Of a stretch of DNA of 32,000 nucleotides, positions 11,707 to 24,729 are shown in pieces. This DNA comes from Deinococcus radiodurans R1 = ATCC 13939 = DSM 20539. Its GTDB lineage: Bacteria > Deinococcota > Deinococci > Deinococcales > Deinococcaceae. A program made the position numbers and the translations under genes. The notes beneath the pieces were generated by a model. The model made no database searches. It had not been told where the DNA came from and worked only from the letters and a program-made list of their open reading frames with translations. The stretch lies in contig NC_000958.1 of the NCBI RefSeq assembly GCF_000008565.1, forward strand, positions 145,467-177,466, written 5' to 3'. The first letter of the stretch is position 1. Each line of letters opens with the position of its first letter.

Positions 11707-14700
11707 GTGAATATTTTCGAGTTCCGTCAGGAAGTCATCAACCAGTACGCCTCCTACGTCTCTTCCTTCGTTTATATCCGCGACCGGGACGTGCGCGCCT
11801 ATGTGGACGCACAGATGCGGAGTGGGGTCTTCTGGCCTGATCCTCTTGCGCAACTCAACCCCAACTTCACGCCGGGCGGCAGCGTCAGTGACCTTGTCAG
11901 TCAAGGGGTCCTGCACCCGGACTGCGCCGCGCTGTTTGCGGCTGGTGAGCCGCGCTCTCCCCTCAACTTGCACGCCCACCAGCGCGACGCGGCTCGGCTG
12001 GCCCGTGAGGGGCGCTCGTATGTCGTGACCACCGGTACCGGTTCGGGCAAATCACTGACCTACATCCTCCCTATCGTGGACCACGTGCTGCGCCGCGGCA
12101 GCGGCAAGGGCATCCAGGCCATCGTGGTCTACCCGATGAACGCGCTTGCCAACAGTCAGGTGGAAGAACTCAGCAAGTTCCTGGGCGACAACGGACCCGT
12201 GACTTTTCGGCGCTACACCGGCCAGGAAAAACGCGAAGAAAAAGACGCCATCATCGCCAATCCGCCGGACATCCTGCTGACCAACTACATGATGCTGGAA
12301 CTGATTCTCACCCGGCAGGACGAAGCCGCGCTGGTCCGGGCTGCTGAGGGCGTGCGCTTCGTGGTTTTTGACGAGCTTCATACCTACCGTGGGCGGCAGG
12401 GGGCAGACGTAGCGCTGCTGATTCGCCGCCTGCGCGAGAGACTAAGGGCCCCCGACGCCATTTGCGTCGGTACCAGCGCCACGATGTCGTCCAGTCCGGT
12501 GTATGCCGAGCGGCAAAGGGCTGTCGCGGACGTGGCCTCGCGGCTCTTTGGGTTGGACATGACCCCCGAGCAGGTCATCGGGGAAATGTTGGAGCGCGTG
12601 ACCTCAGGCGAGCCGGGCACCGCCGAGCTGAAAGCTGCCGTGGCCGCGCCAGTGCCGTCCACCTTTGAAACCTTTATTCGCGACGCCTTGGTGGTGTGGC
12701 TTGAAAACATGGTGGGCCTCCGGTGGGACGGCGAGGCGAAGCGCTATGACCGACAACCACCACAGGCCGTGGCGGGGGACGGGGGGCTGGCGGCGCAGCT
12801 CGCCCTGGAAACGGGCCTCCCCGTGATGCAGTGCCTGGAAGCCCTGCAAGGCCGCCTCCTCGCCGGCAACGCTCTGCAGCACCCGGCCACGGGGCGACCG
12901 GTGTTCGCGTTTCGGCTTCACCAGTTCATCAGCAAGGCGGCCACCGTCTACGCCCCGCTGCTGCCCTGCGCCGAGCGCCTGGAACACCTCACGTTGCGCG
13001 GACAGGTGTACGCCCCGGAGAGTGGGCGCACCCTGCGGCTTTACCCACTGGAGTTTTGCCGCAACTGCGGGCAGGAATACTACTCAGTGCGCCGCGTCCC
13101 TGACCCTGACACGGGCCGTGAGGTGTTCGTGGCACGCGGCAATGAGGCCCGCCAAGAAAGCACGCCGGACGACGGCTATCTCTACCTCGGGGACCCCCCC
13201 TGGCCCCTGGACGAGGAGAAGCTGCTTGAGCGCCTGCCCGACAACTGGCTGGAGGAGAAGAACGGCCAACTGCGCGTGAAGTCCAGCCGCCGTGGGCAGC
13301 TCCCACGTACCGTGCGGGTGAGTGGTCTGGGTGAAGTGGGCCAAGCGGAAAGAGTCCGCGCCGCATTCATAGAAGGCGAATTCCGCTTCTGCTTGTGCTG
13401 CGGCGTGAGTTATCTGGGCCGCACCGGCAAGCTGACCAAGCTTGCCACCCTGTCGAGCGAGGGGCGCTCCACGGCCACGACGCTGCTCAGCATGGCGGCG
13501 GTGCAGGGGCTGAGAAAGTCCGACCTGCGGGACACCGCCCGCAAGATTCTGTCGTTTACGGACAACCGTCAAGACGCCTCTTTGCAGGCCGGGCACTTCA
13601 ACGATTTCGTGTTCGTGGCCTCGCTGCGCGCCGCGTTGGCGCGGGCGCTTAAGGCAAGCCCACTCACGCTCGAAGACGTAGCCCAGAAGGTGTTTGCAGC
13701 GTTAGAGCTGGACCTCGCTGCGTTCGCCAGCGACCCCAACGTGCGCTTCGGCGAGCGCGACCGCACCCTCAAGACGGCCCACAACCTGATTGGCTACGCG
13801 CTCTATGCCGACCTTGCTGAAGGCCGCCGCCTGACCCTGCCCAACCTCGAAGGCGTGGACCTTGTGCGCTTCGAGTACCCCTACCTGCGAGAGGTTTGCG
13901 AAGCCCAAGACCTCTGGGAGCGGGCCCATCCGGCCCTGTCGGTGGTGCGCAGCGGCGTGGTCGAGGCGCGTGAGCGTGCCGCGCGGGCGCTGCTTGACTG
14001 GCTGCGGCAAAACCTCGCCATCAAGGCGCCTTACCTCGATCCCGACTATCTGGGCGCTGTGGTGCTGAACCTGGGCCTGATCCGCGAGGACAGCCCCCTG
14101 TCCCTACCGCCCGAAGAGGCGCAGAACCTCACCACAGCGCGGCGAGTGGTACTGGGCACGCTGCCACGCGACGAGGGACGCTCCACCGGGCGACTCTCTT
14201 TGAGCGCCCAGGGGGCTGTTGGCCGCTACCTGACGCGCCCGGAAACGCTCGCCTGGAGCCAGGCCCTGAAGCGCGACGATGTGGACGCCATCTTGCATGA
14301 CCTCTTGCTGGCCCTCTCTGAGTTCATCGAGCAGGTGGAGCCGGGCGCCTACCAACTCAAGGGAACCAGTTTCACTTGGCACGCCGGGCCGGGCACCGAG
14401 CCGTCCGTGGACGCCTTGCGGGTGCTGCGTCCCGCGGGCAGCGAAGCGCCGCGCGTCAACTCGTTTTTCCTCTCGCTCTACCAGCAGCCCGCCGCCGAGT
14501 TTCGTGACCTTCACGGCGCCGAACACACCGCGCAGATTCGCGCTGAGGAACGCGAGAAGCGTGAAGAAGCCTTCCGCGCCGGCACCCTCCCCGCGCTGTT
14601 TTGCTCGCCCACCATGGAACTGGGCGTGGATATCAGCGACCTGAATGTGGTGCACCTGCGCAACGTGCCGCCCACCCCGGCCAACTACGCGCAGCGCTCC

Positions 14701-16827
14701 GGGCGTGCTGGGCGCAGCGGGCAGCCCGCACTGGTGATGACCTACGCCACCACCGGTAACAACCATGACCAGTATTTCTTCCGGCGCCCGGGGCTCATGG
14801 TGGGCGGCAGCGTCTCTACCCCGCGGCTAGAACTGGGCAACGAGGCGCTGGTCAGGTCGCATGTGCACGCCATCTGGCTGGCCGAGACCGGCCAGAAGTT
14901 GCCGCCTTCGGTGGCCGAGCTGCTTGACGTGAATGGTGAAGACCCCACTCTGGCGCTGCTGCCGGACTTCCAGCATCCGTTTCAGGATGAGGGCGTACAA
15001 AAGCGCACTCTGATTCGGGCACGGCAGCTCATCGCTGGTCTGGGCGTGGACCTCACAGGGACCGGGTGGTACAGCGAGGAATGGCTCACTTACACCGTCA
15101 AACACGCCGCCCGTGAGTTTGACCGGGCCTGCGACCGCTGGCGTGACCTTTACCGCAGCGCCCTCTCGCAGCTTCACCTCAACAACGCCGTGCTGGCCGA
15201 CGCGGGCAAACGCCACCTTCAGGAACAGGCGCGCCGCCTGCACGCTGAGGCGAACACGCAGCTCAGCTTGCTGCGCAGTCCTGAAGGCGAGCTGTCGGAC
15301 TTTTACACCTACCGCTACTTGGCTTCTGAGGGCTTCTTACCGGGATACAACTTCGCGCGTCTGCCCCTCTCGGCTTACATACCCGGACGGCGCGGCGCGA
15401 AGGCAGGAAGGGACAGCTACCTCTCGCGGCCCCGCTTTCTGGCGCTCTCTGAGTTCGGGCCAAACGCCATCGTCTATCACAACGGCGCGAAGTACGAGGC
15501 CCACAAAGTCATCGTGCCGGCCCGCGGTGAAACCAGTGAACTGCCCACAGTGAGTGCCCAGCGCTGTGAGCAGTGCGGCTACCTTCACCATGGCAGCGGC
15601 GACGTTCAGGGCGATCAGGGTGCCCGCGACGTGTGCGAGAACTGTCAGGCCCAGCTCGCGCCCCCGCGCCCGGACCTCTTCCGCATGACCTCAGTGGCGA
15701 CCCGCCGCCGCGAGCGCATCAGCAGTGACGAAGAAGAGCGGCGCCGGATCGGCTTTGACGTCAAGAGCGGCATGCGCTTCGCTTCGCGCGGGGGGCGGGC
15801 CGACCGCGTGCAGGCGCTGGCAGCCACCGACGCGCCGCTGCTGCGCCTGACTTACGGCGACGGCGCGACGCTCTGGCGCATCAACTATGGCTGGCGCAAC
15901 CGCGAAAACAAGCAGGAACTCGGCTTTCTCTTTGACCCCGAGACCTCACAGTGGCTCAGCAAGCAGGGGCACGAACGGAAGCTCAAGGCCGCCGGAGGAC
16001 GGGACGTGGCCGTGCAGCGAGTGATTCCCTATGTGGAAGACACCCGCAATGTGCTGCTGATTGAGCCGGCCCTTCCTCTGGATGCGGGCGGCATGGCTAC
16101 GCTGATGAGCGCTCTCAAAAACGCTGCGCAGCTCACCTACCAGCTGGAGGACAGTGAGCTCGCGGCCGAGTTGCTGCCCGACAGCCAGGAGCCGCGCCAA
16201 ATTCTGCTGTACGAAGCGTCCGAAGGCGGGGCCGGCGTACTGCAAGATTTGGTGTTCCGCTCGGGGGCGCTGGGTGAAGTGGCCGCCGCGGCGCTGGGCC
16301 TGCTGCACTTTGACCCCCTGACGGGCGAGGATCACGGGCACGCCCCCCACGCGGCGGAGCGCTGCGAAGCGGCCTGCTACGACTGTCTGATGACTTATGG
16401 CAACCAGACGTTTCATGACCTGCTTGACCGCTTCGCCGTGCGCGAACTGCTGCTGCGACTGCGTGAGGCGCGGGTCACCTTGCCCGGTGACGCAGGCGAC
16501 CCTTTTGAGACCCTCTGCGCGGCGTGCGGCAGTGAACTGGAGCGCGAATGGTTGCGCTTTGTGCGGGATGAGGGCCGGCGTCTGCCGTCACACGCGCAAC
16601 TGCTCGTGCCGGACCACTACGCCCGCCCGGACTTCGCGTACGCCGAGCAGGCGGCCCTGATCTTCATCGACGGGCCCCACCACGACCAGCCTGGTCAGAC
16701 AGGCCGCGACGCCCGACTGCGCGAAGAGTTGGAGTTTGCCGGGTATACCGTCGTGCCCTTTACGCATGACCGCAGCACCTGGCCGGCGCAACTTGCCCGC
16801 TACGCATTCATTTTCGGGGAAGGATAA
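11707..16827 (+). CDS. Large DEXH-box helicase fused to a DUF1998-type Zn-binding region and a C-terminal Vsr/DUF559-like endonuclease domain (DrmA+DrmB-like / DruE-like)
   Basis: 1706 aa with a GTG start.
- Helicase motifs: GTGSGKS (12031-12054), DELH (12370-12381), [19 protein letters not shown].
- CxxC...CxxC insert: 13057-13068 and 13390-13401.
- DUF1998-like region: [22 protein letters not shown] (15565-15644), [23 protein letters not shown].
- C-terminus: [12 protein letters not shown]...RPDFAY...LIFIDGPHH...[12 protein letters not shown], which resembles DUF559/Vsr-fold nucleases. Confidence 0.9.
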
Positions 16828-24177: not shown

Positions 24178-24729
24178 GCCGGAGTCAATAGTGACATGAA
24201 TAGTTATGTCTTGGATTACAGTGCACGTCAGAAAGTCGGCGGTACACATCTGACTTACAACTACCTCAAGCAATTCCCCGTCCTCCCACCCTCCGTCTTC
24301 AACCCTTCCCGCCTTGCCTTCATTACGCCGCGTGTGCTGGAGCTGACGTACACGGCCCACGACCTGTCCGGCTTTGCCCGTGACCTCGGCTACGCGGGCG
24401 AGCCGTTTACCTGGGATGACGAACGCCGCTTCTGGCTGCGGGCCGAACTGGACGCGCTGTATTTCCTGCTGTACGGCATTGAGCGCCCGGACGTGGACTA
24501 CATCATGGAGACGTTCCCCATCGTGAAGCGCAAGGACGTGGCAGCGCACGGAAGCTACCGCACGAAGGAAGCGATTCTGAGCGTGTACGACGAGCTGACG
24601 GCGCTGGGGCTGGAGCGCCTGCACGAGTACGCCAGCCGTGTACCGGGCGGTGCGGTGGCGGGCGGCTGGGGGCCTGAATGAGTTCATTACGTAGCACTTG
24701 TCAGGATTCTGGTACTATCTGGTGGTACC

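Follow-up and report, generated by a model that had tools for sequence, protein, structure and literature searches.

An ARMADA Type I cassette with a pseudogenised methyltransferase gene on the Deinococcus radiodurans R1 megaplasmid

A study of the YprA helicase family led to the definition of ARMADA, the disARM-related Antiviral Defense Array (Bell et al. 2025, bioRxiv 10.1101/2025.09.15.676423, PMC12458937). In its Type I form, a YprA helicase with a Vsr nuclease is followed by a BrxHII-like SNF2 helicase and then by a PglX-like methyltransferase, and the YprA homolog carries at its C-terminus a "predicted active Vsr-type nuclease"; ARMADA helicases are sister to DruE of Druantia, not to DrmA of DISARM, and in Type I helicases BrxA-like, beta-barrel zinc module and MarR-like domains have been described between RecA1 and RecA2, along with one zinc module in the OB region (Bell et al. 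2025, PMC12458937). Here we analyzed a 32,000-nucleotide (nt) stretch of the Deinococcus radiodurans R1 megaplasmid pMP1 (the window; all positions are those of the whole stretch), which holds a cassette of three genes, armC, armA and armB. The product of the first gene, DR_B0135 (AAF12564.1), appears in Table S1 of that study as an "ARMADA Type I helicase" (Bell et al. 2025, PMC12458937); the system class, its architecture and the membership of DR_B0135 have thus been in print since 2025. We conclude that the locus is very likely an ARMADA Type I cassette in which armB has become a pseudogene and whose R1 copy probably no longer methylates or defends.

In E. coli, a four-gene Type II ARMADA gives broad, direct and non-abortive protection against phages, with neither growth arrest nor membrane damage (Bell et al. 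2025, bioRxiv 10.1101/2025.09.15.676423; mBio 2026, PMC13463889). No gene can be dispensed with, intact Walker/ATPase motifs are needed in both ArmA and ArmC and an intact NPPW motif in ArmB, and deletion of armB leaves cells viable but defenceless (Bell et al. 2025; mBio 2026, PMC13463889). Like the R1 locus, armABCD encodes an SNF2 helicase (ArmA), a PglX-like protein (ArmB) and a YprA-Vsr protein (ArmC). It differs in its gene order, armA-armB-armC-armD, in having an extra RelE-GajB/UvrD helicase, ArmD, and in an ArmC of 2113 amino acids (aa) that has EEP and Vsr domains in addition; the Type II and R1 proteins are 23-35% identical, and only in part. Class 1 DISARM likewise combines an SNF2 helicase, an N6-adenine methyltransferase and a YprA-type helicase with DUF1998, and is, like the R1 locus, methylation-associated, but its DrmA and DrmB are separate genes, its nuclease DrmC is of the phospholipase D (PLD) type, and both its helicase clade and its gene order are different. 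The closest helicase relative is Druantia DruE, also a large YprA protein with zinc modules between its RecA domains and a nuclease domain at its C-terminus; DruE, however, partners DruH, DruA-D or DruM/F/G, not an SNF2 helicase and an N6-adenine methyltransferase, and the nuclease it carries is PLD in type III and an inactivated Vsr in types I and II. BREX shares with the R1 locus a PglX-like methyltransferase, needed in BREX for both defence and modification, and a BrxHII-like SNF2 protein. In contrast to BREX, the R1 locus is without BrxA, BrxB, BrxC, BrxL and PglZ, and ARMADA has a dedicated helicase-nuclease; a paper on BREX diversity makes no mention of this system.

The three genes of the R1 cassette are tightly packed on the plus strand (Table 1). 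A gap of 2 nt separates armC from armA (16827/16830), and the TTG start of armB at 19652 overlaps the TGA stop of armA at 19653-19655, giving a TTGA overlap; the same gene boundaries are found in the RefSeq annotation of the matching public record. A 14-kb region is 100% identical to pMP1 of D. radiodurans R1 across many independent assemblies, ArmC is identical to the D. radiodurans protein at NCBI, and AE001826.1 is the R1 megaplasmid record. The original prediction, made from the sequence alone, had described this packing, gap and overlap at the same coordinates. It had also proposed that the first gene joins DEXH helicase motifs, DUF1998-type cysteine clusters and a C-terminal Vsr/DUF559-like nuclease, that the second encodes an SNF2 helicase, and that the third encodes a gamma-class N6-adenine methyltransferase (VIDPACGSGHF, NPPW) of about 1320 aa once repaired. 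All of this is borne out by the open reading frames (ORFs), the RefSeq annotation and the searches described below. Its suggestion that the locus may be an uncharacterised relative of DISARM no longer holds as regards "uncharacterised", since the architecture was named ARMADA Type I in 2025 with DR_B0135 in the accompanying table; this is a placement within a described system of the same architecture, an outcome that the prediction itself had said would count against it. In its reasoning from structure the prediction was sound, arriving in effect at the ARMADA concept by itself, and the kinship with DISARM that it saw stands, ARMADA being disARM-related according to Bell et al.

The assignment to Type I follows from several features of the locus. 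As in published Type I systems, the same three genes occur in the same order, and the YprA protein has CxxC zinc modules, a fused OB-CON-DUF1998 region and a C-terminal Vsr-type domain, with the SNF2 gene and the PglX-like methyltransferase gene adjacent. For comparison with Type II, we used the E. coli EDL933 armABCD locus, which contains the Type II representative WP_000937974.1. A tblastn search of the window with E. coli ArmD gave no match, R1 ArmC is 35% identical to E. coli ArmC-II across 240 aa and 23.5% identical across 769 aa, as against 37-69% over the full length with the surveyed loci described below, and the OB region has a single zinc-binding module; these observations favour Type I over Type II. 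The R1 copy departs from Type I systems at large in the pseudogenisation of armB, on which the paper of Bell et al. 2025 is silent.

To characterize the proteins of the cassette, three profile sets were run on them: PADLOC-DB (2023), Pfam and NCBIfam. In ArmC, Pfam recognizes DEAD (1.6e-28), Helicase_C (6.6e-14) and MZB/DUF1998 (PF09369, 5.7e-9), with no match in the insert between the RecA domains or in aa 1032-1465. The helicase motifs are a Walker A GSGKS at aa 112, DELH at aa 222 and a motif VI QRSGRAGR at aa 996. CxxC pairs occur at aa 451/562, 1287/1310 and 1557, and the zinc-binding pairs 451/562 and 1287/1310 are invariant across phyla. The family is highly conserved as a whole: column identity averages 64% across phyla, and numerous cysteines and catalytic residues are invariant. 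An AlphaFold2 (AF2) model of aa 1191-1706 (model confidence, pLDDT, 79) matched MrfA (6znp_A, 1.8e-6) and DrmB (7s9v_B, 1.5e-4) in Foldseek, in agreement with the suggestion that the functions of DrmA and DrmB are united here in one polypeptide.

ArmC also appears to carry a C-terminal Vsr-type nuclease domain that has retained its predicted catalytic residues, as judged from alignments and a structural model. The domain contains RPDF at aa 1640 and IDGPHH at aa 1654. Its Pfam DUF559 score of 19.7 bits (E 7.9e-4) falls just under the cut-off of 20.6, and PF04480 is precomputed in many ArmC homologs, for which the JGI label is "very-short-patch-repair endonuclease". Among 12 aligned homologs D1642 and D1668 do not vary, D1655 and H1659 are kept in at least 90% of a 35-sequence alignment, and all four residues are present in R1 ArmC. 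An AF2 model of aa 1590-1706 (pLDDT 92.9) gave as its top Foldseek match the I-Bth0305I catalytic domain 3r3p_B (probability 1.0, template modelling scores 0.56/0.66, E 0.019), a Vsr-like PD-(D/E)xK nuclease, with FAN1-type nucleases lower in the ranking. A profile of the domain searched against PDB sequences returned only non-significant matches (3hrl 0.23, 3r3p 0.43, Vsr 0.6-0.8), above which a spurious mannosidase was ranked. A literature search for DUF1998 together with DUF559 found only an unrelated paper. Separately, three Type I-like ArmC homologs of 1832-1855 aa (P0029, P0056 and P0095) have about 110 extra residues past the Vsr domain; this tail is conserved among the three and is missing from R1 ArmC.

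In PADLOC, the best models for ArmC are DruE1 and DruE3 (1e-86 to 1e-88), followed at a distance by DpdJ (9e-25) and DrmA (6e-20), and DrmB gives no match. The sister relationship between ARMADA helicases and DruE explains this pattern, in which DruE is best and DrmA weak. An alternative offered in the original prediction, a DruE-like helicase recruited to a methyltransferase, is the one of its readings that fits best.

ArmA is an SNF2 helicase by its Pfam matches to SNF2-rel_dom (38.2 bits) and Helicase_C, with GIGKT at aa 124 and DEAH at aa 226; Pfam has no match in its C-terminus. PADLOC relates it to DrmD (5.6e-79) and to BrxHI|BrxHII (3.9e-62 and 1.6e-55), and the DpdE model PDLC02853 covers it from end to end (1.4e-231). 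The NCBIfam models stay under their cut-offs, DISARM_DrmD (NF038317) at 312 bits against 610 and DpdE at 204 against 500. PDLC02853 probably contains ArmA-type sequences, and it could lead to ARMADA loci being mislabelled as partial Dpd; more generally, PADLOC models of 2023 scatter ARMADA Type I over Druantia, Dpd and DISARM labels. Our literature search for DR_B0135-0137 found a single item, a transcriptome table entry for DR_B0136, according to which this gene is still transcribed (Li et al. 2019, PMC6712171).

The product of armB, once repaired, has the motif order of a gamma-class enzyme, with the S-adenosylmethionine (SAM) motif DPACGSG at aa 479 and the catalytic NPPW at aa 768. It matches MmeI_Mtase, N6_Mtase and Eco57I in Pfam, which has no match in aa 1-420 or in aa 901-1157, and DrmMI (PDLC02643, 2.9e-74), REase_MTase_IIG (up to 2.7e-43) and PglX (4.5e-14) in PADLOC. 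In R1, however, the gene is a double-hit pseudogene, interrupted by a nonsense codon and by the insertion sequence ISDra3, and RefSeq annotates it as three separate coding sequences. The pieces on either side of the in-frame TAA at codon 610 share one frame. Glutamate occupies this position in the three closest orthologs and in 24 of 37 aligned homologs, so the lesion was probably a GAA-to-TAA nonsense mutation. The TAA separates the SAM-binding motif from NPPW. No single ArmB fragment can be an active enzyme. The second lesion, at codon 1158, has 27-nt imperfect inverted repeats as arms according to a repeat finder (23122-23148 and 24164-24190, flanking TA included) and a transposase split over two frames (23166-23651 and 23659-24177). 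Excision of 23124-24190 (1067 nt, comprising ISDra3 and one TA copy), with read-through of the TAA, yields exactly 1320 aa; the codon-610 TAA is then the sole stop left in the frame, and the sequence across the ISDra3 junction is colinear with intact orthologs. The original prediction treated the third gene as one in need of repair and understated the extent of the damage, which leaves a copy that is probably non-functional.

We then asked how widely this decay is shared. The ISDra3 insertion is present in all of the D. radiodurans pMP1 records (14/14), and a search of other D. radiodurans plasmid records for an intact armB found none. Among close relatives, an intact armB of 1300-1319 aa lies directly after the SNF2 gene on a metagenomic Deinococcus plasmid and in Deinococcus sp. 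RL (JMQF01000031.1), whose ArmC proteins are 86% and 79% identical to that of R1, respectively, indicating that the decay is specific to the R1 lineage. The trio also occurs on plasmid pRadio2 of D. radiophilus (L082, 13921-18356), where IS982 truncates armB at its 3' end. The gene has been broken independently in at least two Deinococcus lineages, by nonsense mutation and ISDra3 in R1 and by IS982 in D. radiophilus, and armC and armA are intact in both; in R1 they are full-length with all catalytic motifs present. Within Deinococcus, identity is 70-75% for armB versus 79-86% for armC. In the wider survey described below, armB was the gene most often truncated (5/51 loci, versus 1/79 for armC and 0/55 for armA), with a stop-to-stop ORF that was too short in L001, L002, L020, L021 and L064, some of which may reflect assembly errors in metagenome-assembled genomes.

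To assess conservation of the trio, relatives of ArmC were surveyed with one genome per species. At least 600 were found, and the best 80 loci were taken; these come from Actinomycetota, Pseudomonadota, Chloroflexota, Planctomycetota, Cyanobacteriota, Acidobacteriota, Bacillota and other phyla, and their ArmC proteins are 37-69% identical to that of R1 over the full length. Surveyed species-representative loci with at least 7.5 kb downstream were counted as informative (n = 51) and searched by tblastn with the armA and armB proteins. The order helicase, SNF2, methyltransferase, all on the same strand, was found in 47 of the 51. In one of the others the SNF2-methyltransferase pair lies upstream of the helicase, an arrangement given for cyanobacteria by Bell et al. 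2025 (bioRxiv 10.1101/2025.09.15.676423); one has the SNF2 gene alone, and two have neither. The recurrence of one order across many phyla indicates that the trio is a real unit and not a chance assembly, and it agrees with the gene order, and with the test of neighbourhood conservation, set out in the original prediction.

The survey also turned up full-length homologs of ArmD (RelE-UvrD/GajB) in 6 of the 80 loci with an R1-type (Type I-like) helicase: L003 (12310-14300), L010 (6919-8904), L015 (15535-17505), L061 (7743-9815), L057 (7600-9585) and L037 (6675-7925). The homolog stands between armC and armA in L003, L010 and L015. It is upstream of armC in L061 and L057, where the match ends 186 nt and 416 nt before armC, respectively, and in L057 it follows an upstream armA-armB pair. 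These loci raise the possibility that ArmD is not exclusive to Type II.

By analogy with the related systems, an intact Type I cassette might work as follows. ArmB would mark a specific adenine motif in host DNA and would in addition take part in restriction, on the model of BREX and DISARM. ArmC would load on single-stranded or otherwise exposed unmodified DNA of an invader, translocate in the manner of MrfA/DrmAB and cut with its Vsr domain, and ArmA would supply translocation on, or remodelling of, double-stranded DNA. In R1, the broken armB implies a loss of methylation and, going by Type II, of defence as well, so that the system most likely does neither. Loss of armB would be tolerated because the helicase-nuclease spares self DNA even when the methyltransferase is absent, and the viability of E. 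coli armB deletions would explain how an intact helicase-nuclease has persisted in R1 without its methyltransferase. Consistent with a dead armB, single-molecule real-time sequencing of R1 found no motif for N6-methyladenine (6mA) (Li et al. 2019, PMC6712171). In this model organism, the Type I ARMADA thus combines an intact helicase-nuclease and an intact SNF2 helicase with a dead methyltransferase, and close relatives have the system intact. Our search of the literature turned up no experimental work on an ARMADA Type I system. Either the R1 operon, once repaired, or the ortholog from Deinococcus sp. RL would offer an easy starting point for testing what Type I does, and could show whether the methyltransferase serves restriction as well as self-protection.

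Several points weigh against this interpretation. The table of Bell et al., the architecture and the levels of identity are the grounds for placing the helicase in the Type I clade, and the proposed mechanism of Type I is extrapolated from Type II, DISARM and MrfA. The Vsr call for ArmC is weak at the level of sequence, given the DUF559 score below cut-off, the E of 0.2-0.8 in the profile search against PDB sequences and the Foldseek E of 0.019. Deletion of three putative 6mA methyltransferase genes is reported to lower bulk 6mA (Li et al. 2019, PMC6712171); if armB is among those three, some residual ArmB activity would be implied. Finally, the intact armC and armA of R1 could have a function independent of armB. 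One form of this last idea is that the ArmC-ArmA pair retains a methyltransferase-independent role, either in the repair or recombination of DNA, like the MrfA branch of the YprA family, or in restriction that does not depend on methylation. Alternatively, loss of ArmB could have been positively selected, for example because it permits DNA uptake in a naturally transformable host. We regard both ideas as unlikely.

Other readings concern the identity of the system itself. The locus might be a non-canonical class 1 DISARM, with DrmA and DrmB fused and the PLD nuclease DrmC replaced by a Vsr nuclease, which is close to the class 1-like membership first proposed for it. The PADLOC matches of ArmA to DrmD and of ArmB to DrmMI agree with this, as does the structural match of the C-terminal half of ArmC to DrmB, and ARMADA and DISARM have three components in common (Bell et al. 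2025, PMC12458937). Nevertheless, helicase and DUF1998 are fused in a single 1706-aa ORF in R1, whereas DISARM is the YprA branch that keeps them consistently separate (Bell et al. 2025, PMC12458937). Neither the ORFs of the window nor the RefSeq annotation include a PLD gene, and the nuclease fused to the helicase appears to be of the Vsr type instead, both as had been noted from the sequence. The DrmD model of NCBIfam stays under its cut-off, ArmC is far closer to DruE than to DrmA with no DrmB match, and the DrmMI feature is found at the level of the family only. The published tree, moreover, groups ARMADA helicases with Druantia and reports DR_B0135 outside the DISARM/Dpd clade (Bell et al. 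2025, PMC12458937). Membership in DISARM is thus very unlikely.

The same preference for DruE could suggest a Druantia-type system in which a DruE helicase has different partner genes, and the sister relationship of the ARMADA and Druantia helicase clades points the same way (Bell et al. 2025, PMC12458937). However, the DruE matches are partial, covering the helicase core and only part of the canopy, and the similarity to E. coli DruE-III amounts to three short segments of 27-40% identity. No DruH, DruA-D or DruF/G/M partner is present, a tblastn search of the window with E. coli DruH gave no match, and SNF2 and methyltransferase partners, without Dru partners, are conserved in the 47 of 51 loci. 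Type III DruE also carries PLD domains, and types I and II an inactivated Vsr (Bell et al. 2025, PMC12458937). A Druantia identity is accordingly highly improbable. There is equally little to recommend ArmB as a complete Type IIG or Type ISP-like restriction-modification enzyme, with the two helicases as unrelated neighbours. The REase_MTase_IIG, MmeI_Mtase and Eco57I matches that suggest such an enzyme are limited to the methyltransferase and downstream regions (aa 419 onward), and the N-terminal 420 aa have no Pfam nuclease match; strict linkage to both helicases across phyla, with near-zero gaps or overlaps, speaks for one operon. That the locus is the part of a Dpd (7-deazaguanine DNA modification) island responsible for restriction, its helicases being DpdE-like and DpdJ-like, is extremely improbable despite the end-to-end PDLC02853 match of ArmA and the DpdJ match of ArmC, since the former model probably contains ArmA-type sequences, the NCBIfam scores are far below cut-off (DpdE as above; DpdJ 77 against 800 bits), neither the window nor the RefSeq annotation has dpdA (TGT-like), dpdB, dpdC or 7-deazaguanine synthesis genes, and the partner gene in 47 of 51 loci is a SAM-dependent methyltransferase. 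Hma was rejected, the HmaA match (7e-60) being partial and an ATPase partner absent.

Table 1. Features of the ARMADA cassette and its surroundings in the 32,000-nt window.
Feature	Position	Strand	Description
armC (DR_B0135, WP_010883981.1, AAF12564.1)	11707..16827	+	YprA-family DExH helicase, 1706 aa, GTG start, intact
MZB/DUF1998 zinc-binding domain of ArmC	16105..16389	+	aa 1467-1561; part of OB-CON-DUF1998 canopy
Predicted Vsr/DUF559-like PD-(D/E)xK nuclease domain of ArmC	16531..16824	+	aa ~1609-1706, C-terminal
armA (DR_B0136)	16830..19655	+	SNF2/RapA/BrxHII-like helicase, 941 aa, intact
armB pseudogene	19652..24681	+	PglX/DrmMI-like gamma-class N6-adenine DNA methyltransferase, 1320 aa once repaired
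In-frame TAA, armB codon 610	21479..21481	+	between SAM-binding motif and NPPW
ISDra3 (IS630 family), armB codon 1158	23122..24190	+	element 23124-24188; duplicated TA at 23122-23123 and 24189-24190
HicA toxin	24730-24996		downstream of cassette
HicB antitoxin	25009-25542		downstream of cassette
SecB-like ORF	25542-26099		overlaps HicB; Pfam SecB E 4.9e-4, below cut-off; PADLOC PD-T4-9_C 1e-4
McrB-like AAA+ protein, then McrC	26096-30333		McrB ORF 969 aa, long N-terminal extension; McrC PF10117 9e-100
Replication initiator protein A (RPA) gene	30778-31971	-	near cassette

Upstream of the cassette, the insertion sequence ISDra1 (IS4 family; transposase 10492-11475) ends 230 bp before the start of armC. 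Its inverted arms of 47 nt, with 72% complementarity, are reported at 10270-10316 and 11430-11476, and one sigma-70-like site straddles the end of the element (11462-11490). ISDra1 may have displaced or replaced the native promoter of armC.

Downstream, the HicA, HicB and SecB-like genes (24730-26099) resemble a toxin-antitoxin-chaperone triplet; in D. radiophilus, too, the ARMADA cassette is followed by a HicA gene. The McrB-like and McrC genes after them form a Type IV restriction module adjoining ARMADA; the RefSeq start of the McrB-like gene gives a shorter protein than the 969-aa ORF, and a related McrB with DUF4357/DUF8425/DUF8426 is found after ARMADA in a metagenomic relative (L085/L086). 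An RPA gene is located near ARMADA on several Deinococcus plasmids (L082 2088-3380; L085 7883-9292; L086 238-1575), suggesting that the cassette travels close to the plasmid replication region.

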